A stretch of 64,000 bases of DNA from Hyphomicrobium sp. (GCF_041659645.1 NZ_JBAZXX010000001.1:131066-195065); one strand, 5' to 3'. Shown: positions 10,787 through 32,863, counted from the stretch's first letter. Translations and numbers: made by a program. The notes: a model not told the origin generated them from the sequence alone.

Positions 10787-11455
10787 ACGTGCGGTAAGTT
10801 CACACAACACTCTTCATGGCGAGACGTTCACGCGTTCTCTCAGCCACTCGTGCTGACAGGTGGGCCGGACGAGCTTACCGTCTCAACCCCGATGCGCTTC
10901 GCCAACATCATTCGGCTGAACGAAGCGGGCCAACGTGAAGTCGTCTCCATGCGTTGGGGCTTCGCTGGCAAAGGAGACGCCAATTCCATTCGACCGAAGC
11001 ACATGCACGCGCGGTCTGAAACAATCGATCGCCTGCCGACGTTCGCCAATGCCTTCACGCAGGGTCGCGGTATACTTGTAGTCCACACATTCAATGAGGG
11101 CGAAGAGTTATCTAACGGCAAGACCAAGCAATGGATGATCACGCCAAACGACGAGAAGCCGATTGCGATTGCGGTGATTTGCGAAAAGTGGACGAACGGC
11201 GCTGAAACACTGGACACGTTCATTCAGGTGACGACGCTAGCCAATGCTCTGATTTCAACGATCACCGACAGAATGCCTGCGATACTTCAACCGGAAGATT
11301 GGGCGACGTGGCTTGGCGAAAGGGAAGGTGGTTCTGCGGACGTGAAGACAGTTCTTCGGACATACGAGGATGGCGGCGGCTGGACGATGACCGAACAGGC
11401 GCCCACGAGGAGGTCGAAAGCCCAAAAGCCCGATCCACAGCCGGGTTTGTTTTAG
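10787..11455 (+). CDS. SRAP (SOS response-associated peptidase, HMCES/YedK) family; ACG in the start-codon position
   Basis: In frame ACG-TGC-GGT-AAG-TTC-ACA-CAA = (M)CGKFTQ; MRWGF, FNEG and DRMPAIL motifs; may be a pseudogene. Confidence 0.8.
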   Translation, partial: TCGKFTQHSSWRDVHAFSQPLVLTGGPDELTVSTPMRFANIIRLNEAGQREVVSMRWGFAGKGDANSIRPKHMHARSETIDRLPTFANAFTQGRGILVVHTFNEGEELSNGKTKQWMITPNDEKPIAIAVICEKWTNGAETLDTFIQVTTLANALISTITDRMPAILQPEDWATWLGEREGGSADVKTVLRTYEDGGGWTMTEQAPTRRSKAQKPDPQPGLF

Positions 11456-11512
11456 TCGGACAAAAGATGGCGGTTGCTCAGCAATTATCGAAGCAACCGC
11501 CAAGCATGGCTA

Positions 11513-11770
11513 TTAGAAGCCTATCCAGACACCGCGACGCCAGTATCCGCGACCTTCATGCTCGCGCCAACGGTAACGATGTGCCTCCGCTTCACGCCAG
11601 CGCCAATCGTCGGGATACACCGTAACGCCAAATTCTGGACGATAGACGTGGCGCTCACGAACGTGCCAGCAATCGCCGTCTTCGTTGCAAACGATTTCGG
11701 CTGAAGCGGTAGTAGCGGTAAGCGCAAGGACGCTAGCCGCAGCCAGCGCGCACTTCACAAGAAGCTTCAT
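11513..11770 (-). CDS. Small secreted Cys/Trp/Arg-rich protein
   Basis: Signal peptide ending ASA; CNEDGDCWH motif; GAGAG RBS; upstream EcfG motif. Confidence 0.8.
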   Translation of the reverse strand: MKLLVKCALAAASVLALTATTASAEIVCNEDGDCWHVRERHVYRPEFGVTVYPDDWRWREAEAHRYRWREHEGRGYWRRGVWIGF

Positions 11771-11840
11771 ATCCGTCTCTCCTCGGATGTTTCGTGTTCG
11801 GCGCGTAGCTGCGATGCGCTAAGCCTCGAACCGCCATTTC

Positions 11841-11866
11841 AACGGAGCAAAGAGACGTTCAGTTCC
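11841..11866 (-). promoter_or_regulatory. sigma-EcfG-type promoter (GGAAC-N17-CGTT)
   Basis: Exact motif about 70 nt upstream of the 11770 start. Confidence 0.75.
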
Positions 11867-11909
11867 GCTAAATCGGTGTCTGAATATTCATTCAGCCTTG
11901 GAGCGAAGT

Positions 11910-12095
11910 ATGCCCATTGACCAGACACGGATATTCGCAATCATCCGCGAAATCGAGCAGACACCGCACGACGAGTTGAAAGACATGGACCGCGAGCTTT
12001 TGCTGTCGATTAGACAAACGCTCCAAGAGCACAAAAGGGAAGTCGATAAAGTGCTGTTGCGTCTGGCGTTCGTGGACGAGCAGCAGTTGAACTAG
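11910..12095 (+). CDS. Small helical protein, unknown family (copy A)
   Basis: GGAG RBS; homologous to ORFs at 17734, 31885, 33426 and 33639. Confidence 0.75.
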   Translation: MPIDQTRIFAIIREIEQTPHDELKDMDRELLLSIRQTLQEHKREVDKVLLRLAFVDEQQLN

Positions 12096-12226
12096 AACGT
12101 TCCGCTTTTCGGCCGCCAGATAATCACGCCAATTGCAGCGACCACGATAATCCAGAGAACGGATTCTTTTCCACTTGGTTCGAGACCGCCATAGTCGGGG
12201 GATTTCTCGTAGCCGGATGACATGAG

Positions 12227-12571
12227 TCATTTGCTTTGCGATTTTCGATACGCATCGATCATCTCTTTCGTCACGTCCGCCGCCGAGCAGTAAACGGTCC
12301 AGCCTCCGGCCCTATCGTGTGCGCTGCGCTTACCGCATCTATGACCGGCTCTATCTGTATCGCTCGGGCACCCGCATGGCCCTGGACCGCCGGCTCGATA
12401 GGCAGCGATGGATGCCGCAATGATAGCTGTCACGATAGCCGCGTCAGTGAGAATTTCTTCGGTGCGATCTGAAGGATGTGCTGGTGGCGGCGCAAGGCTA
12501 TCCGCGTATGCGGGGAGGCATAACAGAATAGTACACGCGAGCCCGGCAACACTTGAAAATCGGAAGAACAC
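12227..12571 (-). CDS. Small secreted Cys-rich hypothetical protein
   Basis: Signal peptide; CGCP...RCGKRSA...YC pattern. Confidence 0.7.
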   Translation of the reverse strand: MFFRFSSVAGLACTILLCLPAYADSLAPPPAHPSDRTEEILTDAAIVTAIIAASIAAYRAGGPGPCGCPSDTDRAGHRCGKRSAHDRAGGWTVYCSAADVTKEMIDAYRKSQSK

Positions 12572-12666
12572 GCAACCCCCATCGTCCGAGCGAGCGTTCG
12601 CCTCATCTTCGGTATAAGGTTCAAGTTGCGCGAGAATTTGCGGCCTGTCTAGTCCTGCGTTCTCGC

Positions 12667-12810
12667 ACCATCCTTCGGCTGGAAGATTGGGCGACGTGGC
12701 TTCGAGAAGCGAACACTTCCGTGGCCGACGTGCAGGCGGTTCTTCGCACGTATTACGACGGCGGCAAGTGGACGGTGACTGATCGAACGCCCACGAGAAA
12801 GCCCGCGACC
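12667..12810 (+). pseudogene. SRAP C-terminal fragment
   Basis: ILRLEDWATWL...DVQAVLRTYYDGGKW matches the C-terminus of the 10787 copy. Confidence 0.8.
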
Positions 12811-13068
12811 TACCTCACAAAGGGGATACGGAGCCTGATTATTCGACCCGCCACCACGCCAGATACCCAGGATGCAATGCCGAAACAGACATATCAGGCG
12901 GGTTCGGCGCGTCAGCGTCGTCCAGATAGATTTTCCAGGTGCAGCTCCAATTGAAAGCCGCCCCAACTTATTCTCCCGGCCCGGTTTAAACGCGTCTCGC
13001 GCCCCGGCTCAACTCACAAACGATGTCAGAGCCTTGCCCGATGTCGCCGAGCCCCTAGATTTCCGGTC

Positions 13069-13728
13069 ATGTGCAACTTGTATTCGCAGACCCGGAATGT
13101 CGAAGCCATCCGGCGGCTGTTCAAGGTCAGCCACAACCGCACGATATCAATTGAACCGCAGCCCGCGATCTTCCCCGGCTGGAATGGCAGCGTTGTCCGT
13201 AAGGCCGAGGACGGCGAGCGTGAGCTTGTGACGATGTCATGGGGCTTCGTGCTGTTGCAGCCCGGCAAGGCCCCGCGCCGCGTCACCAACGTCAGGGACG
13301 ACAAGATTCTGACCTCGCGCTTCTGGAAGCCGAGCTTCGAGGCCCGGCGGTGTCTCGTGCCCGCGTCGAGCTATTGCGAGCCGGATAGCGGCAAGCCAGC
13401 CCAATGGCACTGGTTCGCCCTCGATGGCGACGATGACCGGCGGCTATTCGCGTTCCCGGGCATCTGGCAGCCCTGGAACGGTCCGGTGAAGAAAGATGGC
13501 CCTAACGTCGAGCTGGACGTCTACAGCTTCATGACGACGGTGCCGAACGCACTCACGGACTCGATCAATCACGAGCGGATGCCGGTGCTGTTATCTGAGG
13601 AAGCCGACTTCGAGACGTGGCTGTCAGGATCACCGGCTAATGCCTTCGCGCTCGCCAGGAGCTTTGACCCTGCGCAGATGCGGATAGTGCAAAGCGGCTT
13701 AGAAAAGAAAGACCTGTTGGCCGCCTGA
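13069..13728 (+). CDS. SRAP family protein (intact)
   Basis: MCNLY N-terminus (Cys2), WGF, SYCEP Glu and HERMP His. Confidence 0.95.
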   Translation: MCNLYSQTRNVEAIRRLFKVSHNRTISIEPQPAIFPGWNGSVVRKAEDGERELVTMSWGFVLLQPGKAPRRVTNVRDDKILTSRFWKPSFEARRCLVPASSYCEPDSGKPAQWHWFALDGDDDRRLFAFPGIWQPWNGPVKKDGPNVELDVYSFMTTVPNALTDSINHERMPVLLSEEADFETWLSGSPANAFALARSFDPAQMRIVQSGLEKKDLLAA

Positions 13729-13813
13729 TTTCTGGTCGGCGCGGCGACAGCCGCGAAAGTACGGTCATGCTGCGGTGCCGTAATGGGCCTTCGATGATCG
13801 CGGCGTGCCTTCG

Positions 13814-15043
13814 TCAGCGGTCACACGAATATGCTTGGGAGCAACGGACGTAGTCGCCCTTGATTGCAAAATTTGGAGTACTGAACTGCAGTGCGTTCGT
13901 GCCGATGGACTTTAACTGTACGTGCTGCTTCTCCGGCTCGTAGTCCTTAGTTCTACAAGCCATATCCAATTCCATCGGGGCACCGACTTTATCGACGGTT
14001 TCTGTCGTGCAACGGAAAGCCTCATAGAGCAAATCGACCTCATTCCCGCAAATTCCGATCATCTCCGATTGACGCCGCGTCACGTTATCCAAACCCTCGG
14101 CGGTCTCGATCTTACAAGCTTCCGCGGTATGCGCCCAAGTGCCGATCAAATTTGCAAAGGGCACGCTGTTTGCTGAATTGTCTTCCAGTCCGTCCTTTGA
14201 ATGGTCTTTGCCTGTTGCATCGAGCAACGTGAATTTTCGCGATACGAGAACGTTTCCGTTCACAACCAAATCCAACTGCCACTCGCCCAAATGATCCATT
14301 GTTTGCGGCCCGTTGAATTCGGAAAAAAGAATGCGCGTTCCAGAATCCGAGCGGCGGTAAATCCATGGCGACTTAATGTCTTCGTAGCCGGTGCCTCCTT
14401 CGGCCACTTCGAAAGGCCGCTCGGTCGCGTAATTGACGATGAGCGATTCATTGCGGCGAAGAGGCGGAATTAGAAGCTCATAGCCGACGATGAGCCCATC
14501 CTCTTTCACCACTTTGTCTACCGGCACCATCCGGTAATTCATGTGATAGCTGCGAACTTTCGCGTTCTCGGAGTCTTTGGTTTTTATTCCTTCGAAGTTT
14601 TTGCTCGTTGGCAAAAAACGCCCGAAATTTGTGACAACAAGATCAACGAGCCTGCCGCTTTCAGTTCGCACCGAAAATGTTCGAGGTAGCGTATCCGAGG
14701 GAACGTCGCTATCTACTCGTTCGATACCTTCGGATTCCTCAGGGCCAGCTTCATTGCAAGTCCATTCCGAAAGCAGGACATAGACGTCTTTTTGCGCTAT
14801 CCCGCCTCGGGTTCCGTGCAAATTGCCTTTGGCAAACGCCCCGGTGGCGGAGTTCACTTTCTGCGTCACATAAAAAGACCAGCCCGTTCCAATGTGGCTG
14901 TCGCCGGTCCATTGCGGATCGATTGCCATGGGGGATGGCGCGCTGAGTATTCTCGCGTTGCTGTCTTTCGGAAGGCAAAGAGAACCGGCAGAGCAAGTGC
15001 CATACGTCCCAATGAGCGCCAGGATAGTAAGAGCGGCTTTCAC
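13814..15043 (-). CDS. Secreted hypothetical protein
   Basis: Long ORF; signal peptide from GTG 15043 (VKAALTILALIGTYGTCSA); no family recognised. Confidence 0.65.
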   Translation of the reverse strand: MKAALTILALIGTYGTCSAGSLCLPKDSNARILSAPSPMAIDPQWTGDSHIGTGWSFYVTQKVNSATGAFAKGNLHGTRGGIAQKDVYVLLSEWTCNEAGPEESEGIERVDSDVPSDTLPRTFSVRTESGRLVDLVVTNFGRFLPTSKNFEGIKTKDSENAKVRSYHMNYRMVPVDKVVKEDGLIVGYELLIPPLRRNESLIVNYATERPFEVAEGGTGYEDIKSPWIYRRSDSGTRILFSEFNGPQTMDHLGEWQLDLVVNGNVLVSRKFTLLDATGKDHSKDGLEDNSANSVPFANLIGTWAHTAEACKIETAEGLDNVTRRQSEMIGICGNEVDLLYEAFRCTTETVDKVGAPMELDMACRTKDYEPEKQHVQLKSIGTNALQFSTPNFAIKGDYVRCSQAYSCDR

Positions 15044-15624
15044 GACACCCCCTATAATTCTCCATCTGAACTTGTCCAACTTTGCACAGACACGTTTCGC
15101 GCGTGCAATGGGGCGGATCATATGATTTGAAGAAAGATGAATTCTGATCGCTGTTCTTAAGCCAATCAGATCACCCGCACTGACACCTCAGCGTGCCACC
15201 TTCTAGACATGGCTGTTCGGCACACCGGCTGAGCAAGGTTCAGCAGTTTAGGCGGGGCAGTTGCTTATCATTGGCACGGCCGATGCGTTGACACACTATG
15301 GACCATCTGCGAAACGCCTTTCCCTTTAAGTATTCCAAGCGCCTAAACGTCGTTTTGGCGATGGTTGCGATGGTTCTGATCGCGCCGATTGCCGTGCTTC
15401 CTGTGCCGCTGTTTCGAGATCTATTTACCGAGCTTCTCAAAATCGTACGGTCTGGCGGAAACTTACCGTCCTAATCCGAAGGGGAGAGTGGTTGTCGCGC
15501 GATATTTTCGAACCTCAGTCGACGATTTCATCGCCGAGATTGCTAATCGCATTCGCGCGGCACTCTGACGGGAACGAGGTACGTAGATTCGACCTTGTTC
15601 GAAAGCTCTCTGACGACGTTACAC

Positions 15625-15698
15625 GCGCGGGCTTCGACTCCGCACGGATACGTATCGTGCAAAGCAGATTTGAGAAGAAAGATTTGCGGGCTACCTAA
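15625..15698 (+). pseudogene. SRAP extreme C-terminal remnant
   Basis: RAGFDSARIRIVQSRFEKKDLRAT* versus ARSFDPAQMRIVQSGLEKKDLLAA* of the 13069 gene; DNA is also similar. Confidence 0.65.
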
Positions 15699-15754
15699 GC
15701 TGTAGCGCACGCGATGATCTAACAGGAGCTATTTGCGCACTAGAACGATTGGGA

Positions 15755-16429
15755 TCAGAATTTATAACTGACACCAGCGCGCACACCTTGTTCGATGACA
15801 TCGGTGGGATAATTCCAGCCGCTATCCGTCTTCGGATTATCGGTGAAGCGGCCAAAGTCCGTGTAGCGATATTCCACGCGTGTCGTCCAGTGAGGCGACC
15901 AAGCGTATTCGACACCACCGCCCGCGGTCCAGCCAGCCTGAATGTTCGTCGAATTATCGTGGGTTGAACCTTCGTCGTAAGTCGATTGAATGTCGCCAAT
16001 CGCCAAACCGCCGGTGCCATAAATCAAGGCCCGTCCCATCGAGTAGCCGATGCGAGCCCGTAGAGATCCCTGGACGTTGATGTTGGTCTCGATGATACCA
16101 GCGAATTCAGAATCTATCTTGCCGCTAAAATTTGCGGCTTCGATGTCGCCTTCAAATCCTAAGATGATCGAGTTGAAAACATAATTGTAACCGGCATGCA
16201 CACCTCCGATTGCGCCATCGGGACCGGATGATCCTCGCCAATCAGAATTCCCACCAGATTTGCTAACGTCATGGCTGTGAACTTCGCCCCACGAATAACC
16301 GGCTTGCGCACCGACGTAAGCGCCCGCCCACGAAAATGGCGAACTAGCATCGTAGTCATCCGCAGAGCCCGCAAAAGCGGGAGTTCCTATGCACATGCCG
16401 ACTACTGCGATCCAGGTGCTGATTCTCAT
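15755..16429 (-). CDS. Outer-membrane protein, Omp25/RopB-like 8-stranded barrel
   Basis: WAGAYVGAQAGY, GWTAGGGVEY and RVEYRYTDFG motifs; terminal YKF. Confidence 0.9.
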   Translation of the reverse strand: MRISTWIAVVGMCIGTPAFAGSADDYDASSPFSWAGAYVGAQAGYSWGEVHSHDVSKSGGNSDWRGSSGPDGAIGGVHAGYNYVFNSIILGFEGDIEAANFSGKIDSEFAGIIETNINVQGSLRARIGYSMGRALIYGTGGLAIGDIQSTYDEGSTHDNSTNIQAGWTAGGGVEYAWSPHWTTRVEYRYTDFGRFTDNPKTDSGWNYPTDVIEQGVRAGVSYKF

Positions 16430-16524
16430 TGGACGACCTCTTTGATGGTGAGGGTGGATCCCACCATTCGTCATGGGCGTCTAGATCGATCCAGCAACAG
16501 TCCGCAGAATTAGCGGTATACGTC

Positions 16525-16710
16525 CTAAATTTCTACGATTTCGCGAAAGGGGACTGTCAGATCGAAACACAGATCTCTGAATGGATGGGCGAGTTTGTGC
16601 AACGCGTCACGATCAAGGGCAGTGGCGACGTTTTCTATGTCCTGGATCAGCCGGGCGCCGTGCTTTGCAGCACGCTTTCGAGGATTTGTTGATTTCCGAG
16701 GTTTCGCCAT
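16525..16710 (-). CDS. Small hypothetical protein
   Basis: Plausible ORF with basic N-terminus, divergent from 16919. Confidence 0.4.
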   Translation of the reverse strand: MAKPRKSTNPRKRAAKHGARLIQDIENVATALDRDALHKLAHPFRDLCFDLTVPFREIVEI

Positions 16711-16918
16711 CTCCGGCCCCTGCGGCGTAATTCGCGATGCAATGGCTGTATTTTATAGCTGAGTCTGTGAATGTCGATCTCCTGGTAAAATAGGAAATCT
16801 AGGCCCGAGGTCTTAAGTGTGAGCGCACTTGCTTCGGGAGCAAGGGGGCGGAAGTTGGGGTAATGACTAAAATCACTGTCGCCGAACTCCGTGCTATGAT
16901 TGGCGCAAAGCAGGAGGA

Positions 16919-17134
16919 ATGGACGTGCCACTAATCAGTCGACTGAAGGAGCGAAGGGAAAAGCTCCAAGCGCAGCTGGACCGATGGATCGCCCGAGGTT
17001 TCCGGGGAGGCGGCAAAGGCACATCGAACGATGCAACTTCGAAAGAAACAGCTGACAAGGTTTCGGAGATCGCTGATCTCAGCCGCACCATCGCCGAGCA
17101 GGAGACGAAGAAAAAAGATGTCGAAGGTCCTTAA
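16919..17134 (+). CDS. Small coiled-coil hypothetical protein
   Basis: Strong GGAGG RBS; charged helical composition. Confidence 0.6.
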   Translation: MDVPLISRLKERREKLQAQLDRWIARGFRGGGKGTSNDATSKETADKVSEIADLSRTIAEQETKKKDVEGP

Positions 17135-17167
17135 GGGTGAAAAGCCCCCCGCCGACGTCATCCACTT

Positions 17168-17428
17168 CGCCGACTGCTCTACGTCGCGATGACGAGGGCC
17201 AAGGACGACTTGCATCTGATCGTGCCGCAGCGCTTCTTTACGCACGGACAGTCTGCAAAAGGCGATCGACACGTTTATGCGTCGAGGACAAGGTCTATTC
17301 CAAACGCGTTGATCGACCACTTTGAAAGTGCCGCTTGGCCGATAGCAGCTGGTGGCAATTCCACAGCGAGGGCGGGAAGTTTTTCTCGGATCGATGTGGC
17401 GACCAAGATGAAACAGAGATGGGAGTAG
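17168..17428 (+). pseudogene. UvrD/Rep helicase C-terminal fragment
   Basis: In frame RRLLYVAMTRAKDDLHL (helicase motif VI); rest of the gene absent. Confidence 0.85.
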
Positions 17429-17733
17429 TGGAGATCATGATTGGCGAGAATGGTGATCGGATTGTCAGGGCCAATTGACGGATCTTCGCTCGATTCCATT
17501 CCGGATTTGATTAATTTTGGGCTGCGTCGAGATGCAAGCCAGCCACAATTATTGTCATATCATCCGTAGACGTATTGTCTGAATCTGATTCATGTTTTTT
17601 GTCGGTAAGCGAAGGCGTTCGCTCTCCCCGGCACCTTGATGGATGATAGAAACGTGACGCTTTTCCCGACCCAAAGGAAATCGCGTTGAAATTTTGATGA
17701 CATTGTTCCACTCAACAATATTGGTGAGCTCTC

Positions 17734-18042
17734 ATGTCAGAAAATCATTTCGCCACTTCGCACGCGCAATCTGATGATCTTGAATCGATGATGGAAGAAG
17801 CGCGACTGGTCGATTGTCTTTTGTCGGGCGATCAGACGTTACAGCCGGTATCGACTGCTCTAAGCTCTGACCCGGCGATCCTGCTCATATTGTGCCGTGC
17901 GCTCGAGAAAGAAGCCCAAAATAAACTTGATACGTTTAAACGCGAGCATCTGCTCACGATCCACAAATGCCTGGCGGGACTCAAGGAAGATATCGAACGC
18001 CGTCTGGTTGGTTGTTTCGAACCCTCGTTAGCATCGACCTAA
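17734..18042 (+). CDS. Small helical protein family member with N-terminal extension (copy E)
   Basis: LCRALE..L...REHLL.I...L..LK..IE..L matches copies A-D. Confidence 0.6.
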   Translation: MSENHFATSHAQSDDLESMMEEARLVDCLLSGDQTLQPVSTALSSDPAILLILCRALEKEAQNKLDTFKREHLLTIHKCLAGLKEDIERRLVGCFEPSLAST

Positions 18043-18269
18043 TGATGCCGCGCGGGAGCGGCGCGCGCAATCTGTGCTCCTAAAACTGGTCGGACTGGCA
18101 CCCGCTAGCCCTCAGGAGCTTCCTCTTTTCTGAAATAGCTGAAGCACTCTTACGAACGCGTGGGGCCAAATCATTCGTGACGAACGACCTCGTCAATACG
18201 TCCAATGGGTAGCTGACGGTACGACGGGCCTCGAGACGAACGTCAACAGCCGTTGCGAGCCGGAAGGCT

Positions 18270-18794
18270 CTACGGATTGGCGGAGGCTGCTGTCCAAGTT
18301 CGATAATCCGCGTCAGACACTTTCGGTATCGCCTTCACGAACGCGGCAAGGTGCCAAAGCTGATCGTCGGTGAGTCCGGCCTTCCCGAAGCTCGGCATGC
18401 CGGTCATCCGAATTCCGTTTTTGATGACCCAGAAGATTCCCGCAGCACTCCGCTCGTTGGCGACATCCTTCAGGTCGGGGGGATCGGGATTTAGGCCTTC
18501 GGAGAATTTCGACCATTTTACTCCTGGGCCGCCGTGACAGTGCACACAGCCGGCGTTTGCAAAGTCACGTGCCCCTTGCTGAATGACCGTCTGATCGTCG
18601 AGCGGGAAAGGGGCGTTGCCGCCTTCATCTTCGTGCCGCGCGATAGAGGCGTTACGCGTGCGAATGAGCGCCCATTTGACAGGAACCGGATCGCCCACTG
18701 CCGCGGCGACGTCGTAGAAACCGGCGAAAAAATATACTCCGGCAAACACTGCAAGGATAATTGCCAACGCGCCAACAGCAGCAAGGAGTCGCAT
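18270..18794 (-). CDS. Membrane-anchored monoheme cytochrome c
   Basis: CVHCH, IKNGIRMTGMP, N-terminal TM segment, GGAGG RBS. Confidence 0.9.
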   Translation of the reverse strand: MRLLAAVGALAIILAVFAGVYFFAGFYDVAAAVGDPVPVKWALIRTRNASIARHEDEGGNAPFPLDDQTVIQQGARDFANAGCVHCHGGPGVKWSKFSEGLNPDPPDLKDVANERSAAGIFWVIKNGIRMTGMPSFGKAGLTDDQLWHLAAFVKAIPKVSDADYRTWTAASANP

Positions 18795-18950
18795 GCTCGC
18801 CTCCGAGGTATCCGCTCACCATGCCCGGAAAGTACTCCCGAAGCTCAACCGCAGCAATGCTGTTGCAACCCTGGCCATACCTCGAACACGGCGGAGTCAA
18901 AAGCGCGCCCATGGTCGGTGCAATGATGCTCGCGTGTGTGAGCGAGTGCC

Positions 18951-19665: not shown

Positions 19666-19703
19666 CTTTTCGCCACTCCGATAGGGCTGTTGGCGTGATC
19701 CGA

Positions 19704-23579: not shown

Positions 23580-23621
23580 GAATGATGGCGTGCGTCCACG
23601 TCCAAACGATAGGAGCCAGAA

Positions 23622-23939: not shown

Positions 23940-24159
23940 TTCTAATTCGTGTTCCCTCTCACTCTAGTGGACTGCAAGCCGTCGGGCAGAATCAAACATA
24001 TGACGGTATGCGTTCTGACAACGCGGACAACCCATTGAAACGTCATCACCGGAACGTCTCGCGAACAGTCAGAACCCACCGTCCAATCGTTATCGCGCTG
24101 CTGACCGCGGTGAAACAGATCCTTTGGATCGTCGCCGCCTTAAGGGCTATTCGGAAGAA

Positions 24160-24244
24160 CCGGGATGCGGACGATCTCCAGCGGGATATCCTCGGGTGAA
24201 ACAACGAAATCGATGCAACCACAAGCGATCGCACTATCCGGCAT
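24160..24244 (-). pseudogene. CheB methylesterase C-terminal remnant
   Basis: MPDSAIACGCIDFVVSPEDI. Confidence 0.65.
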
Positions 24245-24342
24245 ATACCTAAGACGCGGCGTGCCTCCTGGTGGACGCCCACCTGGATGAGCGGACTGGA
24301 GTTGCTGTCGAGGCTCCATCACACGGGCCGCCGGCTCCCTCA

Positions 24343-24498
24343 ATGACGATGACGGGTGGTAGTGACGTCCAGATTGCGGCCCAAGCCATGCAAGCAGGAG
24401 CTTCGGATTTCGTCGAGAAGCCGATCGGCCGGCATAATCTGTTGAACAGCATCGCGCACGGGCTCGAGCTATCACTAACCTGCGACAGCATATGGTAA
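24343..24498 (+). pseudogene. FixJ-like receiver-domain remnant
   Basis: TGGSDVQIAAQAMQAGASDFVEKP. Confidence 0.7.
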
Positions 24499-24693
24499 GC
24501 TCGAGCTTAGGTGTGCGACGGCCACGCTGAGGCGGCTGGGGGTTGCGCTTTGAATGTTCAATAGGGCGGTACGCTCCTAAGAGCGGCGCAGCTACCGGTC
24601 CGCTACAACTCCCTTTGAGCCAGTTGGGCTGAACCCTCTCCTGACTGTGGGATTGGACGGCGAGACTGATCTGCGGGAGCCGACGGACGATTA

Positions 24694-25530
24694 TTAAGCC
24701 GTTTGTCCGAGTTTTACGTCGGCAAAGAATGAGACGGCGGAATGGCTAGCTTCTTTAGCGTCATACATCGCCATATCGGCGCTTTGCAGCAATTCAGTTG
24801 AAGTTGAACCATCAAGGGGGGCTGAAGCAACTCCGATGGCTACTCCAATGAAGTGGAGACGTGAATCTATTTCGATGCCGTCAGATAATGCTTGGACAAA
24901 GCGGAGCGCTACACTCTGCTCCTGCTTACGTGAGGGGAGGGAAGGAGCAAGAACTGCAAACTCATCTCCACCGAGCCGGGCAACCAAATCCTCAGACCGA
25001 GCGGCGGCTTTGAACCGAAGAGCGACGACCTTAAGCACTTCGTCACCACACGCATGACCGAACTGGTCATTGATTGCTTTGAATCCATTGAGATCGAGCA
25101 AGTAGACCGTCGGGTGTGCGCTTCGATCCAGAGACACTTGCAGACAGCGAAGGAATTCTCGCCGATTGGGTAATCCCGTCAGCGCATCCGCCATCGCGAG
25201 CGAGCGCTGCTCCTGCAATTCAGATTCCGCGAGCACCCGTTTCGTGCGATCCTGCCGTTCTTCAAGAAGGCGTCGCCAAATGAATATGGTCGCGCATAGC
25301 GCGAACAGTAAGCCAAGCGCAAACAGTTCTTCGCTGCATATCGTACGCTCGCGAGGGGTAATATCGCTCCATAGCTCTTCCAGATCGTAGGCTAGGGCAA
25401 GTGTGACCCCGATCGCCATAGTGGTGATCGTCAGCGATAAATCAAATGCGCTCGTGAGAGGATGACGCTTTATCGTCTGAACGAAAGTAGCGAATTTTAC
25501 CACGGGAAACCTCAGGAAATAGCTCGGCAT
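24694..25530 (-). CDS. Membrane diguanylate cyclase
   Basis: Two TM segments, DLNGFKAINDQFGH, RSED I-site five residues before GGDEF. Confidence 0.92.
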   Translation of the reverse strand: MPSYFLRFPVVKFATFVQTIKRHPLTSAFDLSLTITTMAIGVTLALAYDLEELWSDITPRERTICSEELFALGLLFALCATIFIWRRLLEERQDRTKRVLAESELQEQRSLAMADALTGLPNRREFLRCLQVSLDRSAHPTVYLLDLNGFKAINDQFGHACGDEVLKVVALRFKAAARSEDLVARLGGDEFAVLAPSLPSRKQEQSVALRFVQALSDGIEIDSRLHFIGVAIGVASAPLDGSTSTELLQSADMAMYDAKEASHSAVSFFADVKLGQTA

Positions 25531-25743
25531 GGTAGTAAGGGATGGTTGAGATCTCCGTAAAAGCGATTGTCAAATTGTAGTATCCGCTGCGGATGTCTCC
25601 GTGGAACCGCCGCGCCGGATCTTGCCCCGATTCCATTGGAAACCACGTCGGATCTATGGGTGATGGCCGCCCCGGATCGCTCAAAAACAAACTTGTGCCG
25701 CATATACAAGTCATTACTCCCCAAAAATCATGGAGCATTGGTT

Positions 25744-26274
25744 TTGAAGCACCGTATCCACGTATGCGGCCTGCGTAACGTCTCGAAAACTTCTGAAGCG
25801 ATTGGCGCCGGTCATCTGGTGAGCGCTATCGAAGCCCACTCATTCCCAAAAACGCCTCGGAACATCCTGCGCGGCCGCCATCTCAGACTTGATATGGACG
25901 ACATCGCACAAGCGCAGCCCGACATGGTGCTGCCGTCGGAGAGGCATGTTCTCGACCTGCTGGACTTCGTCCAAAGCTGGGATCAGAAGTCTCCGTTGCT
26001 CGTTCACTGCTTCGCCGGAATGAGCCGCTCCACGGCCTGCGCCTATATCGCAATATGTGCGCTCAACCCCCAGGCCGACGAAGAACGGATTGGGCAATCG
26101 ATGCGCAGATTGTCAGCGACGGCCACTCCCAACCGCAGGCTTGTAGCGCTTGCAGATGATATCCTCGGACGCGACGGGCGAATGATCGCCGCGGTTAGCG
26201 ACATGCACGCGTGCTTCAACGATGTGGCTACGCCTTTCAGTGTGGGCCCGAGCGACTTCCTGGAAACCGCTTAA
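25744..26274 (+). CDS. Protein-tyrosine phosphatase-like protein
   Basis: HCFAGMSRS (CX5R); GGAG RBS 8 nt before TTG 25744. Confidence 0.88.
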   Translation: MKHRIHVCGLRNVSKTSEAIGAGHLVSAIEAHSFPKTPRNILRGRHLRLDMDDIAQAQPDMVLPSERHVLDLLDFVQSWDQKSPLLVHCFAGMSRSTACAYIAICALNPQADEERIGQSMRRLSATATPNRRLVALADDILGRDGRMIAAVSDMHACFNDVATPFSVGPSDFLETA

Positions 26275-26608
26275 CTGAGCCGCTGGCTCGACCGCGAACG
26301 TTCTAGTCGGCATAGTCATTGTGTCTAACGAGAGCTGGTGTGTCGGGGGGCAGTCGGGACCAAGGAATCCGGCGCACGTAACACAACATGGGGCGCTCGC
26401 CCTGGACGTTTGCCTTATCTCGGCAACGGATGCACGCGTTCCTTCGATCTAATGATAAGAGGTTGCGACAAAGCGGACTTGGTTCCCGGTGGTTCCGTTC
26501 GCGGACTATAGTACTGTCTTCCACGCCTCGACTTTTGGGCCGCAGGGTGTGCAACTACACGGTGCCCAGGGGCTCGGGATGGAGACGGCGCCATTTCGTC
26601 GTTTTTGC

Positions 26609-26633
26609 GGAACTCTCTGAGACGGGCGGCGTT
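26609..26633 (+). promoter_or_regulatory. sigma-EcfG-type promoter (GGAAC-N16-CGTT)
   Basis: Exact motif 27 nt upstream of ATG 26661. Confidence 0.75.
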
Positions 26634-26660
26634 AGTGGGCTTTCAAACAATGGGCTTTCG

Positions 26661-27506
26661 ATGGAAATCAACGTAGGTTGTACGCTGCGCTATCAGATGG
26701 CATCGGCGACCGGATTCGTGTTTCAGATAGAGGCCGCGAAGGCGGACAGCCAGTTCGTCAAGAGCGAGCTGCTTACTATCCCGGCAGGTCCAGATCCTTC
26801 GGGGTATACGTCGTTCGTGGATGCCATCACATCAACACGTAAGGTGCGTGCGATGCTCGGACCTGGCGTGGCCGAGATCAACTATCGCGCCACCGTCGAT
26901 GTCGACACCACGGGATTCGATCCCAACAGCGTCTATGAATTTGATTTCGTGAACCTGCCGATGGACTCTCTCGAATACGTCGCGCCGAGCCGATATTGCC
27001 CATCGGATACTTTTACGCAGTTTGCGAATGAGGTGTTTGGCGGCATCCAGCGTGGGCACGTTCGGATACAGGCCATCAGCGATTGGGTATATTCTCACAT
27101 AGGCTATCAGAGTGGCGCTACGGGGCCGTCCTCTACCGCGGTGGATGTGTTTCATAGCGGCCAAGGGGTGTGTCGTGATTTCGCTCACCTCGGTATTTCT
27201 TTATGCCGGGCGCTCGGTATCCCGGCGCGTTATGCAAGCGTTTATGCCGACGGACTCGTGCCGCAGGACTTCCATGCGGTCTTCCAAGCCTATCTCAATG
27301 GGCCGACGGGCGGCAGATGGTTTACGTTCGATCCGACGCGCATGAGTTCATCGGATTTCGTTGTTCGAATCGCTGCCGGCAGGGATGCGGCCGACGTGGC
27401 CTTCGCGTGGCCGCAGGGCGAAGTTGCGTTTGAGGCGCCACAGGTGTTCGTCGAGGCTATGGGCCGTCAGGATCGGACGCGCAGCTCACTCGCCATCGGA
27501 AATTAG
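26661..27506 (+). CDS. Transglutaminase-like protein
   Basis: GVCRDFAHL, DFHA and FDPT triad motifs. Confidence 0.92.
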   Translation: MEINVGCTLRYQMASATGFVFQIEAAKADSQFVKSELLTIPAGPDPSGYTSFVDAITSTRKVRAMLGPGVAEINYRATVDVDTTGFDPNSVYEFDFVNLPMDSLEYVAPSRYCPSDTFTQFANEVFGGIQRGHVRIQAISDWVYSHIGYQSGATGPSSTAVDVFHSGQGVCRDFAHLGISLCRALGIPARYASVYADGLVPQDFHAVFQAYLNGPTGGRWFTFDPTRMSSSDFVVRIAAGRDAADVAFAWPQGEVAFEAPQVFVEAMGRQDRTRSSLAIGN

Positions 27507-27624
27507 CGGCGGCATTTCGTTGATGCTATGCGGGAAAGAACTCGCGTTCGATTGACGATAAACATTCATTACTTTTGAGCATATTTGCCGACGGGAGCGC
27601 GAGAAAACCGCCCCTAAGAGGCTC

Positions 27625-27651
27625 GGCCTCCGGCATTTTCGCTCGGAGGCC
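27625..27651. terminator. Hairpin between convergent genes (possible bidirectional terminator)
   Basis: GGCCTCCG-N11-CGGAGGCC. Confidence 0.45.
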
Positions 27652-27744
27652 TAGCTGCAAATTGATAGGTGCTGAAATACCGATCGCCGTGCGCGCCGAA
27701 CCTTGTCCCAGACTTAGCCGACGCTTTTCGAAGCGGAAACGCGC

Positions 27745-27885
27745 TTAGTCCAATGACGGCTTCGGATCGTCGATCGGAATCGGAGGGGGCTGCGGTGGGT
27801 CTTTGGGTTCGGGAGGTAACGGCGGGAGCTGTCCCGGTTCCTGTGTGGGATGGGGAATCGTCGGTGGATCGTCCTCATTGCCCAT
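27745..27885 (-). CDS. Small proline-rich peptide
   Basis: MGNEDDPPTIPHPTQEPGQLPPLPPEPKDPPQPPP; directly downstream of 27897. Confidence 0.45.
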   Translation of the reverse strand: MGNEDDPPTIPHPTQEPGQLPPLPPEPKDPPQPPPIPIDDPKPSLD

Positions 27886-27896
27886 CTGGAAATCTT

Positions 27897-28175
27897 TCAT
27901 GCACGACGCCAGAGAATGATGGTCACGAAGGCTCCCGCGATGGCGGCGACGTAAAGAAGTAACGTCGGTAAGAGTTCGAGAATGACGCCGATATGGAAAC
28001 CCATGAAGGAGCCGGCGATGCCGACCAAGGCAAACGTGATATCGCCAGCGCCGGTTGCTCCGGCAATTTGACGACCGAGCCAGCTTCGGCCCGCGCGGTT
28101 GAGGAAAAGGCCGACGATAATCCCGATCAGTACGAGGAGGATGAATGTGACGATGGCAGTCGTAAGAATGGGCAT
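27897..28175 (-). CDS. GlsB/YeaQ/YmgE-like stress membrane protein
   Basis: Three hydrophobic segments, GIAGSFMG motif; upstream near-consensus EcfG motif. Confidence 0.75.
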   Translation of the reverse strand: MPILTTAIVTFILLVLIGIIVGLFLNRAGRSWLGRQIAGATGAGDITFALVGIAGSFMGFHIGVILELLPTLLLYVAAIAGAFVTIILWRRA

Positions 28176-28211
28176 GGTGCGATCCTTTTGAGTATCTCTC
28201 CGGCCGAATAC

Positions 28212-28237
28212 AACGCTGCGGAGCCAACGATGGTTCG
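28212..28237 (-). promoter_or_regulatory. Near-consensus sigma-EcfG promoter (CGAAC-N17-CGTT)
   Basis: One mismatch; 36 nt upstream of the 28175 start. Confidence 0.55.
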
Positions 28238-28340
28238 GTGGGCTGGGATTTTCTTCGGGCGAGAGCCGTCAGCGCGAGGTTAGACGGAGCGTCGGCGGGT
28301 TCGATTGCTCGGCAAAATTCAGCTGGGTCGAGTGGGTGCA

Positions 28341-28366
28341 GGAACATCCGCGCCAGTTCCGGCGTT
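28341..28366 (+). promoter_or_regulatory. sigma-EcfG-type promoter (GGAAC-N17-CGTT)
   Basis: Exact motif 30 nt upstream of ATG 28397. Confidence 0.75.
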
Positions 28367-28396
28367 TCCGGACGCAACACAGCGAGGAGCACGACA

Positions 28397-28525
28397 ATGG
28401 ACGGAAAATCATTCCTTATCGGGGCGCTGATCGTAGCGCTTCTGGCCGGGGGCTACTTTTACTACGACAGCACGCGTTCGCAGGTGAAGATCAATGCCGA
28501 TGGGGTGAAGGTGCAGGCCGAGTAG
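28397..28525 (+). CDS. 42-aa single-pass membrane protein
   Basis: GAGGAG RBS; MDGKSFLIGALIVALLAGGYFYY; EcfG promoter. Confidence 0.75.
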   Translation: MDGKSFLIGALIVALLAGGYFYYDSTRSQVKINADGVKVQAE

Positions 28526-29019
28526 CGAGTGTGCCGACCATCGGCTTGTCGACGACGGGAGATACAATCTTTCGATAAGGGTGCGCGAGGGGGAGCTGGA
28601 TGGGGTCTGCTCGGCAATGACGAATGCCAGGTGATCGCAAGAACGGCTTCCCCGCGCTCGAATTAGTGCCACTCGTTTGAAGCGTTGGCTTTCGCCTGGC
28701 GGTTGGAATATGAGCGTGGGGATGCCATTATGGGAGATGAGTTCTTCATAGACGAGACGGTCTTCCGGGGGAATATTTTGTGCTTGAACGCATTCTATTT
28801 GTAGCAGACGGGGCGGGCTTTGTCTTACAAGCGCGATATTGCGTCCCGAAATCGGTTCTTCGTCGTACTGCGATACCATCGATTTCCCGGCCGTTGGTTT
28901 CCCATCATCGGCGCCGATCCAACGTCGCCTGATTGCAATTGCGGGCGGGCAATATTCATTGGGCCGACGTCGGGCGATGAGGTCGGTCTCCAATTGCTCA
29001 GAACATCACATGAGACGAC

Positions 29020-30108
29020 ATGCACATCCTTTGCTTTATGCCCCGCAACATGAGATTTGGTCCGTCGAATGCGACGTCGATCGATCTTTGTGTGCATGAC
29101 CTCATCCTCGCGAGCCGCTATCGTGAGGAGACAAGGATCCTCTGCTGCGAAAACGAGACGTTGTTTCCAGGCTTGCACATATCGACGTATCCGCCCTCGA
29201 TAGACCGCCGTAAGGCAAAAAAAATAAAGTTCGCGTTGGCGCAAGCGCGGTCGAATTCAGCCGACGTGATCGTCGTGCAGCAACATCTTCCAACGGCTGC
29301 AGGCGTGGCGCGACGAAGCCCGATGCCGGTCATCCTGCATAAACACAACATGACGAAGCCGATACCGCCCACGGGATTTTTCAATCGCGTAAGGCGTAGC
29401 TGGCGTATTCGTCAGCATAATGCATTGGCGGGGATCATGTTCGTGAGCGAAGCCTGCCGAGACGAATTTCGCGCCGATTGGCCTGAAATTTCGACGCCGA
29501 TGGCCGTCGTCTACAACGGGTTGGACTTCGATCAGTGGCAACCCGCGGAACATCCCCGAAACGAGATTATTTGCGTCGGGCGAGCGGCGCCAGAGAAGGG
29601 CATCAAAGACGCGGCAGAGGCTATCGTTCGTGTCCTTGCAGCCGAGCCTCTGTGGTCGGCACGGTTCATATTGAGCGAATCCCAGCGGTTTCCGGACTAT
29701 TTGCAGAGTGTCATCGAGACGCTGAAGCCGGTTGCGGATCGAACGACCGTGGAACTCAACCAAACTTTGCCTGTTGTGAGACAACGGCTGCAAGAAGCGG
29801 CAATCGCGATCGTACCTTCCAGATGGGAGGAGCCCTTCGGCCGGACCGCTCTTGAGGCTCACGCGGCCGGGTGTGCGGTCATCAGTTCCGGCACCGGCGG
29901 GTTGCGGGAAGTCAGCGGCGACTACGCGCTGTTCCTGCCGAAGGATTTCACCGCGAAGGACATTGCCGATCGGCTGGAGCAACTTGTAAGCGATGAGGCA
30001 AAGAGAACTCGCTTGGCGAGTGAGGGCCGCGACTATTGCCTACAGAAGTTCGCTTTGAAGGCAGTTTCTGAAAGTGCGGACCGATTTTATCAACGAATAA
30101 AAGCCTAA
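29020..30108 (+). CDS. Glycosyltransferase family 4
   Basis: GRAAPEKG and EEPFGRTALEA (EX7E) motifs. Confidence 0.92.
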   Translation: MHILCFMPRNMRFGPSNATSIDLCVHDLILASRYREETRILCCENETLFPGLHISTYPPSIDRRKAKKIKFALAQARSNSADVIVVQQHLPTAAGVARRSPMPVILHKHNMTKPIPPTGFFNRVRRSWRIRQHNALAGIMFVSEACRDEFRADWPEISTPMAVVYNGLDFDQWQPAEHPRNEIICVGRAAPEKGIKDAAEAIVRVLAAEPLWSARFILSESQRFPDYLQSVIETLKPVADRTTVELNQTLPVVRQRLQEAAIAIVPSRWEEPFGRTALEAHAAGCAVISSGTGGLREVSGDYALFLPKDFTAKDIADRLEQLVSDEAKRTRLASEGRDYCLQKFALKAVSESADRFYQRIKA

Positions 30109-30743
30109 TACGAATGTCCGAGGGCCTTGCGTTTCAATTTTGGCGGAGATTGCAGGCTCTCGAAGCCGTTCCCTTGCCCCGGGAGTGTCCTCAAAGCTAC
30201 ATTTCTTGGGCTTCATCGAAGTAGTGCCCGGGAAACCAAACTCTTCAAGCAAGCGAGCTGTCGTCGTGACGCACCGGGCGGCCCCGGTACGAGGACGACT
30301 ATGCCTAGTCATTTTGATCGATTTGCACTGGAGGTTTCTGCCGCTACCAGTCGCTAAAAAAGGCATTAGCATCGTCGCGTCGTGATAGCCATCAAGCGAC
30401 AGATCTTGGCGCCACTGAAGTGCATCGCCTGTCGATACGTGCCGCTGGAAAATCGGGAAAAAAATCGCCAAGAGCAGGTGCTGCTCGTAACGTCATGGGA
30501 ACCGAAACATTCGAGGATCGCGAAAGGTTGGCCGTGGAATAAAGTGAGGAATTCAAAATCTGCGCGCGCGAAGCGAGGTCACGGACCAGGTATTATCGGA
30601 TAATTAATTGCGTGTCGGGTGGGAACAGTTGGTCTAAAAAAAATTTTCATCGCCCGTGGTTCGAGGGGCTCTCGCACGGCACTCTCATAGATTATACAAC
30701 GTAAATTCACGAGCGCGGATCGGTCAATAAGGCATGAGCTTCT

Positions 30744-31181
30744 ATGGTTGGGGGAATGTTGAACTATCACGCTGCCGAAGCGATCATAAGTTCAATGCAC
30801 TTAGCGTGGAGCGACAGTGATCTCTCAAGTCTTCTAGAGAATTTTGCAGACGACATTGTTTATAGGCCCAATTTACGGGATGCGTTTGGGCACACCAGAA
30901 TCTACCGCGGTCGGCGGGAACTCGAACGCCTTTTCCGGTACAAATCTGAAATGCTGACGTCGACAACGACGGTCGAGCAGTTCGCTTACGCGTCGGGGAT
31001 AGCGCGCACCAAGATAGCGTTCATCCAGGGCCATCATCGGACCGGCCTGACTTACGTCGGCACCTATCGGCAAATCGTGATGTTCCGGGGGCTGAAGATC
31101 GCGTTGCTTGAAGAGCTTCACGACGCCGAAAAGCTTCGCGCGTTCTGGAATTTGGTAACGGCTGAGGAAGGCGAACGGTGA
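30744..31181 (+). CDS. SnoaL/NTF2-like protein
   Basis: AW...DL..LL..FADDIVY and GTYRQ..F...KI..L.E.HDA pattern; paralog at 33842. Confidence 0.8.
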   Translation: MVGGMLNYHAAEAIISSMHLAWSDSDLSSLLENFADDIVYRPNLRDAFGHTRIYRGRRELERLFRYKSEMLTSTTTVEQFAYASGIARTKIAFIQGHHRTGLTYVGTYRQIVMFRGLKIALLEELHDAEKLRAFWNLVTAEEGER

Positions 31182-31335
31182 TGTTGGGGGGCAATCGTCC
31201 AGGGGTAACGCTCGCACTCAAAGAACTCGAGCGAACTGTACGATCGCACAGCGACGTGGTTGCATATTGAGCGGCGCTCGAGGGCATCGCCGGGTCGAAT
31301 TACGTTCAGACTTAGTTATCGGCACACAGCGAGAC

Positions 31336-31697
31336 TTAATCTCTAGCCAGACGAGTAGCTATGACGCTGTTCACGACGATCGACACATCATCAGGATTGA
31401 ACGGCTTGGCTAGGATCGGCGTATGCGGATAAAGCGCGCTTATTTGGTCCGCACCAGCGCCGTTGCAGAATGCGAACGGGATACCCTTTTTTTTTGAGTG
31501 TGCGTGCAATCGTTTGAGCGTCGCTATCCTCAAGAACGTAATCCATTAGAGCGACGTCGATCTTTTGGTGATCCAGGACGTCGAGTGCTTTCGGCCGCAG
31601 AAATATCAAGTGACTGCTCCGCGGCTTCGGCCAGTGCGTTGTTCAATGCACGCGAGCGCAAAATTCTATCGTCAAAGCTGTAGCCATCGATTCGCAT
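31336..31697 (-). pseudogene. Single-domain response regulator, frameshifted
   Basis: IDVALMD, GIPFAF and LAKPF motifs in different frames; frame change at an A9 run (31487-31495); degenerate 5' end. Confidence 0.75.
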
Positions 31698-31884
31698 AAA
31701 AATTTCTCAAATGCTCAAAAAAAGACAGTTGAAGAAGATATGCCGTATGCGTCATATTTACTGAAGATTGCTATGCTAATGCGACGAACGACATGTGACA
31801 GAGATTGATATTCCAAAAGCGATTTGAGCTTAGCACGGAAGTTAGAGCTTGCCGACGTGAATGGGTTTCGTAATCGGGTGCATA

Positions 31885-32064
31885 ATGCCAACGACGAATA
31901 GCATCACTCTGCTCAATATCTGCCGGGCAATTGAACAAACACCAGATGAAGGGCTTATGGCGATCGAGCGTGACGCCCTGGTCGCGACACGAAAAGCCTT
32001 GCGAGCCCTCAGGCAAGAAGTGGATCGAGCATTGTTGCGATTGGCAATTTTGGACGAGCAATGA
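31885..32064 (+). CDS. Small helical protein family (copy C)
   Basis: ICRAIEQTP..L...ERDAL...L..LRQEVDRALLRLA; homologous to copy A. Confidence 0.7.
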   Translation: MPTTNSITLLNICRAIEQTPDEGLMAIERDALVATRKALRALRQEVDRALLRLAILDEQ

Positions 32065-32374
32065 CCGAGTCATCGACTTGCGTCCCGCGCCTGCTCATTA
32101 CGGTTTATCGCCATATCTTGCACGGTATTTTTTAGCTGCGGTTTGGAGGGATGGTCTTGCCCTGCGTGAAGGATTTAGGGCACCCCCGCGAGGGCACGTG
32201 GAGTAATGTCTTGGCAATGAGGGAATTGACTGGTCTTGCCGCGCAGGAGATAGGTAGATCTCAAAAGTGCAGTTGAAACCGCACTCCTACAAATTCGCAC
32301 CGAGGAATGATGGTCGACTGAGACATCGCGTAACGTCGCGACTGCTGGCCACTGGTCTCATTTCGCGCTCGCGT

Positions 32375-32863
32375 CTTTGGCAGGCAGGGTGGTGGTAATC
32401 CCGTTCAGCCAAACCACATGCACGTTCGGTCTGAAACAATCGACCGACGACCGACGTTCGACAATGCCTTCGCTCACGGTCGCGTCATTCTCGTCGTCCA
32501 CACGTTCAACGAAGGCGAAGAGTTGCCGAACGGCAAGACGAAGCAATGGGTCATCACGACGGACAGCCGATTGCGATAGACGTGATTTGCGAGGAGTAGC
32601 CGAACGGCCCTGATACACTGGACACGTTCATTCAGGTGACGACGCCAGCCAACGCCCTGATTTCGAAAATTACCGACAGAATGCCGGCCACACTTCAGTC
32701 GGACGATTGGGCGACCTGGCTTGGCGAGGAGCAAGGTTCACTGGCTGACGTAAAGGCGGTGTTTCAGACATTCGAGGATGGCGGTAACTGGACGATGGAG
32801 GAGCAGCCGCGCACGCGAAATGCCAACGCGAAGAAGTATGAAGGGCAACCGGGACTTTTCTAA
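32375..32863 (+). pseudogene. SRAP pseudogene (5'-truncated, frameshift, TAG at 32597)
   Basis: Colinear DNA similarity to 10950-11455, ending QPGLF*. Confidence 0.88.

Follow-up and report, generated by a model that had tools for sequence, protein, structure and literature searches.

Copies and remnants of SRAP genes of two lineages in a tRNA-linked region of a Hyphomicrobium genome

The mechanism of the SRAP (HMCES) proteins has so far been described with a fixed Cys-Glu-His set of residues. In the founding description of the family, Aravind et al. called the histidine absolutely conserved (PMC3765255), and in Escherichia coli YedK, where Glu105 is essential, Paulin et al. assigned to His160 the role of general acid for ring opening at apurinic/apyrimidinic (AP) sites, the H160A and H160Q variants being ~10-fold slower; at 3'-phospho-α,β-unsaturated aldehyde (3'-PUA) ends His160 matters less and the N75A variant performs poorly (PMC9436759). 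Here we report the analysis of a stretch of 64,000 nucleotides from Hyphomicrobium sp. (GCF_041659645.1, NZ_JBAZXX010000001.1:131066-195065; hereafter the window), which carries an intact SRAP gene, a further copy having ACG as first codon and remnants of others. Five SRAP copies or remnants had been listed by the first-pass annotation; all of them are real, all lie on the + strand and they fall into two subfamilies, here termed clade A and clade B (Table 1).

Like YedK and human HMCES (PDB 6NUA, 6KBZ, 5KO9), both clades belong to PF02586, with the same fold (for clade A as modelled). They keep the catalytic Glu, two DNA-contacting Arg residues (in HARxE and DRMP) and the Cys that comes right behind the starting Met, this Met being replaced by an ACG codon in copy A of the window; clade B also retains Asn75 and His160. 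Clade A, on the contrary, has Thr at the position of His160 (His210 in HMCES), His at that of Asn75 and FNEGEE instead of GFYEW. Identity with YedK and HMCES is 17-25%, and the copies described here are accessory, island-borne and additional to a canonical chromosomal SRAP gene. The best solved relative of clade B is the Agrobacterium tumefaciens pAT protein Atu5096 (PDB 2AEG, E 1e-16), which likewise starts with MCNLY; unlike the plasmid-borne SRAP genes of Alphaproteobacteria, however, the window clade B gene is chromosomal, and it has neither repair genes as neighbours nor the small Zn-ribbon gene that precedes several relatives. The locus resembles the tRNA-linked islands and the Trb-type integrative and conjugative elements (ICEs) of Alphaproteobacteria in its tRNA boundary, low GC and species-specific content, and elsewhere clade A SRAP genes follow trbI-DUF736-alpA or lie by P4-type integrases and tRNA repeats; the window, however, has no integrase, excisionase, type IV secretion system (T4SS) gene or flanking direct repeat, and could at most be a composite in an advanced state of erosion. 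The cluster, which is real and non-random, is of an ordinary kind as a set of island relics; what is new is a clade with a putatively relocated histidine.

The SRAP cluster and its genomic setting

The window corresponds to C1:131066-195065 of a 4.26 Mb genome in 7 contigs (G000; GC 59.6%) and its proteins have their nearest relatives in Hyphomicrobium. From a tRNA-Ser(CGA) gene onwards, the GC fraction falls from ~0.61 to 0.49-0.58 (0.596 for the genome) along ~86 kb (~C1:134k-220k), a stretch that ends just before lon. In two genomes of the same genus (G001 and G011), where this flanking gene and this tRNA are also present, the 38 kb behind them are unrelated, and in one of the two, G001, a frameshifted N-terminal remnant of a B-type SRAP gene lies downstream of this same tRNA. 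An adjacent tRNA, deviant GC and lack of synteny in relatives, as expected for a tRNA-linked island, were thus all observed.

Seven of the 11 SRAP-derived loci of the genome lie inside 68.5 kb, corresponding to 1.6% of its length. The genome total comprises 7 Pfam SRAP matches plus further fragments, and most same-genus genomes have the canonical gene alone. This canonical yedK-like gene (233 bits, LHDRMP motif) is located on contig C2 in DNA of normal GC (0.60-0.63), while further B-type copies on C3 and C4, as well as a pseudogene on C2, are found in low-GC zones near tRNAs and close to DUF736, ParA and serine-recombinase genes. Two B-type fragments were also seen 13-15 kb past the window end in the same island, at C1:207969-208133 (residues 89-143) and C1:210114-210318 (residues 1-44), the latter just preceded by the tail of a small Zn-ribbon gene, the same that precedes B-type SRAP genes in other genomes.

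Among the members of the cluster, the clade B gene shows the canonical set of residues, i.e., Cys2 (ATG-TGC), Asn (TNVR), Glu (YCEP) and His (NHERMP), and it is intact and probably working. The clade A copy at 10787 (copy A) also scores well above the Pfam cut-off for PF02586 (27.1 bits). The pseudogene A2 matches residues 59-222 of copy A at 68-72% identity in two frames (32376-32860), with 79% nucleotide identity to 10982-11407; its lesions consist of a net 7-nt deletion at ~32558-32565 and of a TAG at 32597-32599 that replaces the codon of the invariant Trp135. The two remaining pieces have no Pfam match and were assigned by tblastn. The clade A 3' remnant (A3) matches residues 151-209 at 49% over 59 aa (12625-12801; E 4e-14 within the window) and forms direct repeats with 11282-11409 (74-85%). 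The clade B 3' remnant, the weakest assignment among the five, matches residues 199-218 at 70% over 20 aa (15633-15692; E 0.005 within the window, E 1.7e-8 against a set of 120 B homologs, 78% to residues 199-216 of homolog P0276) and is a 73% nucleotide repeat of 13661-13726. A possible further piece upstream, colinear with it, is a 71% repeat of 13588-13638; between these two pieces lies an intact ORF (open reading frame) for a hydrophobic 58-aa protein, of unassigned family, having an 86%-identical copy at C4:340079-340261.

That SRAP genes are common in mobile elements, as the first-pass annotation had stated, holds for both clades. Relatives of clade B occur on 150 alphaproteobacterial plasmids (PLSDB), next to a UmuC-like gene on a Phaeobacter plasmid and elsewhere with Ku, ligase and the small Zn-ribbon gene upstream; UmuC-like, Ku and ligase neighbours are known associations of SRAP genes (Aravind et al. 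2013, PMC3765255). Clade A is carried by Trb-type ICEs and by islands with integrases or resolvases. The latter clade is rare: a pattern search through 185,579 species genomes retrieved 28 clade A loci (Hyphomicrobiaceae, Hyphomonadaceae, Rhodobiaceae and unclassified Alphaproteobacteria), and a sample of 400 other genomes from the order gave no match at E 1e-30 or better. The order TrbI-DUF736-AlpA-SRAP closes a Trb T4SS operon in three diverged element lineages (L005, L021, L032/L033), and within 8 kb of other clade A genes P4-type integrases (L006, L009, L028) or resolvases (L001, L002, L003, L031) are encoded. One locus (L024, positions 1-4100; from the metagenome-assembled genome (MAG) OH_CBrB_221) contains, in this order, tRNA-Pro(CGG), clade A SRAP residues 1-97, an IS3-type transposase remnant, an N-terminal fragment of a P4-type integrase, a partial tRNA repeat and a second, frameshifted clade A SRAP gene, an arrangement suggestive of elements added in tandem at a tRNA site, the SRAP gene lying immediately next to the junction. 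A Hyphomicrobiaceae MAG carries three full-length clade A SRAP genes, two on JBJXDX010000110.1 (L005, L006) and one on JBJXDX010000148.1 (L007); the two on the same contig are ~19.5 kb apart in inverted orientation, one after TrbI-DUF736-AlpA and the other 2.7 kb from a P4-type integrase.

The best explanation overall, which we hold to be rather probable, is that the cluster consists of relics of mobile-element cargo integrated in a hypervariable tRNA-linked region. The window would then hold SRAP genes of two lineages that were acquired horizontally, are in excess of need and for the most part decay; apart from copy A, two clade A pieces and one or two of clade B would be dead fragments. On the carriers (Trb-type conjugative elements, tRNA-targeting islands and plasmids) the N-terminal Cys would cross-link AP sites in the single-stranded DNA (ssDNA) of the element during transfer and replication, thus preventing strand breaks; the location of SRAP genes right after ICE transfer genes and on many plasmids suggests a recurrent need to shield AP sites in transferred ssDNA. 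Once a carrier is immobilised in a host with its own SRAP, the accessory gene would become redundant and decay. Elements or their fragments would pile up at one hypervariable tRNA-linked site, where SRAP genes, often close to element ends, would persist as remains of the junctions. Local duplication in the past, involving A/A2 and a linked small ORF (S ORF), probably contributed at least once.

Several observations weigh against this explanation. A tblastn search with P4-type integrase, AlpA, resolvases, TrbI and DUF736 gave no match in C1:131-226 kb, no T4SS gene survives in the island and no attachment-site (att) repeat was detected, the sole tRNA repeat being a 12-nt match at chance level; likewise, neither an integrase or recombinase nor flanking direct repeats of the tRNA 3' end were found in the island. 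Since mobility genes and att repeat are missing, an origin from mobile elements is deduced from the context of these genes elsewhere. Clade A gave 0 matches among 72,556 PLSDB plasmids, and one member (L034) lies among the core-like genes dxs, xseB and sodB, so that the clade is not exclusively mobile. Finally, the synonymous divergence (dS) between A and A2 is 0.55 (nonsynonymous divergence, dN, 0.12), below the dS of 1.0-1.8, at equal dN, between A and the foreign genes with DNA at hand, which favours a local duplication over a second capture.

Capture and local duplication

Repeated capture of SRAP-carrying cassettes, as proposed by the first-pass annotation, could be sustained only in part. 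The two clades are only ~26% identical, thus implying at least two acquisitions from unrelated lineages, and the window clade B protein is 89-91% identical to foreign proteins versus 78-79% to its in-genome paralogs, grouping with the former in a supported clade that leaves outside the C3/C4 pair and the C2 pseudogene. Less well sustained are a separate capture of A and A2, possibly the product of an old local duplication, and the cassettes themselves, as no integrase, att repeat or cassette-like structure is left in the window. A recent local duplication was rejected on the basis of a nucleotide identity of 64-79% among the copies, with similarity limited to the coding parts and B copies without common flanks; the lack of common flanks also led us to reject a repeated mobile element carrying SRAP, either an insertion sequence (IS) or a miniature inverted-repeat transposable element (MITE).

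Fragments of SRAP genes recur in and outside the window. Both full genes of the window have, on the same strand, a diverged copy of their own 3' end 1.2-1.9 kb downstream. A similar arrangement is seen in another genome (G012:C9:6905-8154; L047/L050), where residues 152-219 of an intact B-type SRAP gene are encoded a second time 400 nt beyond it, with an opposite-strand 110-aa ORF in between; identity to the gene drops from 98% in the initial 106 nt of this copy to 76% in the 79 nt that follow, a mosaic suggestive of a crossover between two alleles. Fragments of the 5' end are found upstream of full genes in L006 and L024, and B-type fragments occur in same-genus genomes at several places (at least 6 in G015, 3 in G011 and 4 in G001). 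Both clades occur together in Hyphomicrobium sp. B1 (L031, CP134871.1), where an intact A gene has a B fragment 5.4 kb away, and in G015:C23:84346-103436, where a B pseudogene has an A remnant 18 kb away. The former region also contains integrase, HNH, ParA, resolvase and FRG genes and an OLD-family nuclease.

Local birth and death, i.e., old segmental or partial tandem duplications in the locus followed by divergence and decay, with little foreign import, might produce much of this picture, and we regard it as a possible but doubtful origin of the cluster. Indeed, A, A2 and the S ORF are repeated at 76-89% nucleotide identity with nearly constant spacing, each full gene has its own 3'-end copy downstream on the same strand, and a clade of A plus A2 was not rejected by the approximately unbiased (AU) test (p 0.80), A2 sitting on a long pseudogene branch and better trees having been missed by the quick search. 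From the A/A2 dS, lower than the values of at least 1.0 obtained with foreign genes, and from the AU test it follows that a second capture of A2 is no more likely than an old segmental duplication within the lineage; apparent dS, however, may also drop through codon-usage convergence within one genome. Local duplication, on the contrary, can derive neither A from B nor B from A, and it does not agree with a window clade B protein whose closest relatives (90-91%) are foreign and not its in-genome paralogs, nor with A3, whose nearest DNA relative is foreign (79% to L002 versus 72.5% to A and 69% to A2, in a short and weak match). The two-allele mosaic downstream of the G012 gene is likewise not expected of plain duplication.

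Coming back to integrated cargo, the fragment pattern may reflect SRAP genes lying beside element ends, or their use as homology anchors for incoming DNA. In particular, an accessory SRAP gene may represent an att-proximal landmark, where the incoming allele crosses over with the resident one and leaves a displaced 3' or 5' fragment. If true, this would explain the pile-up of copies and remnants at one locus.

Active site of clade A

The motif difference pointed out by the first-pass annotation is correct, both the 10787 and 32375 copies reading ITDRMP where the 13069 copy reads NHERMP. In the HMMER alignment Thr160 of clade A corresponds to YedK His160, and His74 (in MHARSE), missed at first reading, corresponds to YedK Asn75. 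The 120 closest database proteins (64-87% identity, 112 of them full-length) all have Thr160 and His74, with Cys2 after Met in 112/112 and Glu104, in the FNE motif, in 119/120. Based on sequence, clade A is a divergent branch of the superfamily that has the catalytic Glu and is devoid of the canonical triad.

An exhaustive search of cluster representatives yielded 82 usable full-length proteins, of which 41 have His74 without His160, 35 have Asn74 with His160 and three have both histidines; Asn74 without His160 was never found (0/82). In the tree of these representatives, with the histidine position mapped, the His-less proteins form one clade of 44 rows with 100% local support. Together with the Thr in all 120 homologs, this bears out the earlier claim that loss of the histidine is a subfamily trait and not decay. 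The sister of the His-less clade, P0214, has both histidines and a canonical GFYEW motif, suggesting that the second His was gained first and the old one lost later. Deeper members of the clade all keep His74, while residue 160 can be T, A, G, D, Q, I or V. Pairwise dN/dS within clade A is ~0.06-0.3.

The invariant His74 is more suggestive of a histidine that has changed place than of a loss of function, and clade A would apparently represent an SRAP branch with a repositioned catalytic His that is still undescribed; a literature search retrieved no description of a His-less SRAP. We infer that clade A still cross-links AP sites by means of the relocated histidine, with His74 taking the general-acid or positioning role of YedK His160. 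The first-pass annotation had proposed that the chemistry of the His-less clade may be different; kinetics or substrate preference may differ, for example in favour of ring-opened aldehydes such as 3'-PUA ends, on which His160 contributes little in YedK, and Asn75 more. The AlphaFold2 (AF2) model of copy A has the SRAP fold (predicted local distance difference test, pLDDT, 72.3; predicted template-modelling (TM) score, pTM, 0.72), and all 21 Foldseek matches at E <=1e-3 were SRAP structures (TM 0.6-0.67). A weaker side of the proposal is that residues 1-36 of the model, Cys2 included, have pLDDT <50, the proximity of His74 to Cys2 being predicted solely from homology with YedK Asn75.

In its most extended form the proposal has two joint parts, namely that the catalytic His moved from the position of His160 to that of Asn75 via a both-His intermediate, in a cross-linker specialised for the ssDNA stage of conjugative or integrative elements, and that SRAP genes act as recombination anchors; as a whole this would be tentative, with limited prospects of both parts holding. 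A selected clade without His160 and always having His at the Asn75 position is in any case a natural experiment, which can reveal at which step the histidine acts, ring opening or Cys2 positioning, and whether formation and reversal of the cross-link are tunable.

Alternatively, clade A might no longer cross-link, and might bind or sense ssDNA or AP sites non-covalently or act on another substrate. In this direction go the absence of a histidine called absolutely conserved in the founding description (PMC3765255), the freedom of position 160 to vary in distant members and FNEGEE in place of GFYEW. We consider this unlikely, as Cys2 and Glu104, corresponding to the two most important residues in YedK, are kept almost without exception, His74 at an active-site position is invariant, clade A is under strong purifying selection and YedK H160A/Q still cross-link, even if more slowly (PMC9436759).

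Copy A itself retains Cys2, His74, Glu104 and Thr160. Its beginning reads T-CGKFTQHSSW..., with the Cys codon right after an ACG that replaces the initial Met of all 112 full-length homologs, and no ATG, GTG or TTG is found in frame upstream before a stop. The rest of the gene is conserved (3 deviations at 109 conserved columns, rank 18 of 121) and its dN/dS versus relatives is ~0.06-0.14; from these data, either the start codon was lost recently, or the ACG is a base-call error, or it is weakly used. A base-calling error, which would weigh against reading copy A as a decaying gene, may indeed be at play at this codon. In bacteria, ACG is a very poor initiator. Expression of copy A, from the ACG or from an upstream non-canonical start followed by self-processing of the N-terminal extension, could be invoked in view of a frame without excess of damaging changes, of an upstream in-frame stretch of 37 codons without stop and of SRAP crystal structures that had lost the sequence N-terminal to Cys (Aravind et al., PMC3765255), but it is very improbable given the universal ATG start of the full-length homologs, the lack of an in-frame upstream initiator and the four neighbouring dead fragments, which fit pseudogenisation. 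The truncated 187-aa gene calls of homologs were also considered as recurrent non-ATG starts and rejected, since L001 and L002 have ATG starts with frameshifts; both derive from one metagenome assembly, and the frameshifts there may be assembly errors.

Other features of the window

Table 1. Location of the SRAP genes, their remnants and neighbouring features, in nucleotides from the first position of the window.
Feature	Position	Strand	Remarks
tRNA-Ser(CGA)	2500-2589	+	ARAGORN; start of low-GC, species-specific accessory region
bPH_2 (bacterial PH domain) gene	10212-10721	+	Pfam PF03703, 52 bits; 66 nt upstream of copy A
Clade A SRAP (copy A)	10787-11455	+	222 codons, no internal stop; Pfam 104.1 bits
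Small ORF (S ORF)	11898-12095	+	61-65 aa, no known family; linked to clade A SRAP
Clade A 3' remnant (A3)	12625-12813	+	Residues ~151-213; 1.2 kb downstream of copy A
Clade B SRAP	13069-13728	+	Intact, MCNLYSQ...; Pfam 107.4 bits
Possible further clade B remnant piece	15168-15230	+	Residues 170-190, one internal stop; tblastn E 0.043, marginal
Hydrophobic 58-aa ORF	15298-15474		Intact
Clade B 3' remnant	15621-15698	+	Residues ~195-219; ends at family stop position
Receiver-domain fragment	24271-24495		Response regulator; Pfam 28 bits
Receiver-domain fragment	31336-31609		Response regulator
Further S ORF paralogs	31861-32064; 33414-33608 (perhaps also 17734-18042)		Four or five copies in window
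Clade A pseudogene (A2)	32330-32863	+	First ~58 codons gone; ITDRMP kept; C-terminal piece Pfam 32.4 bits
H-NS-like gene	32943-33260	-	Pfam PF00816, 57.7 bits; between A2 and its linked S ORFs
S ORF paralog linked to A2	33639-33823	+	77-89% nucleotide identity to 11910-12095; frameshift near 3' end
SnoaL-like fragment	33830-34108		

The S ORFs share the motif ...IIREIEQTPxDELKxMDRELLLSIRQTL... and, like the other small ORFs, they have no match in Pfam or NCBIfam; database homologs number 28, all unnamed. The S ORFs linked to A and to A2 have 79% nucleotide identity to each other. An S ORF also adjoins the clade A SRAP genes of the metagenome loci L001 and L002. In the paralog linked to A2, the C-terminal LLRRAFVDEQQLN continues in another frame. 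Together with this frameshift, the receiver-domain and SnoaL-like fragments (Table 1) indicate that gene decay in the region is general and not SRAP-specific.

As to regulatory sequences, no LexA box (GAAC-N7-GAAC) was found upstream of the SRAP genes, the count in the window being below chance expectation. EcfG-type promoters number 6 in the window versus 2.9 expected, a value reached in 8/100 shuffles and thus not significant, with none directly upstream of an SRAP gene; one EcfG-like motif (GGAAC-N17-CGTT, 10153-10178) lies upstream of the bPH_2 gene. A 61%-identical bPH_2 gene is located ~600 nt upstream of the clade A SRAP gene of Hyphomicrobium sp. 2TAF46 (L003). Beyond the window, an ORF at C1:198216-199700, among the few phage- or element-type genes remaining in the island, shows by eye only Rad52/Sak-like ssDNA-annealing motifs and a Cys/His-rich, HNH-like C-terminal tail.

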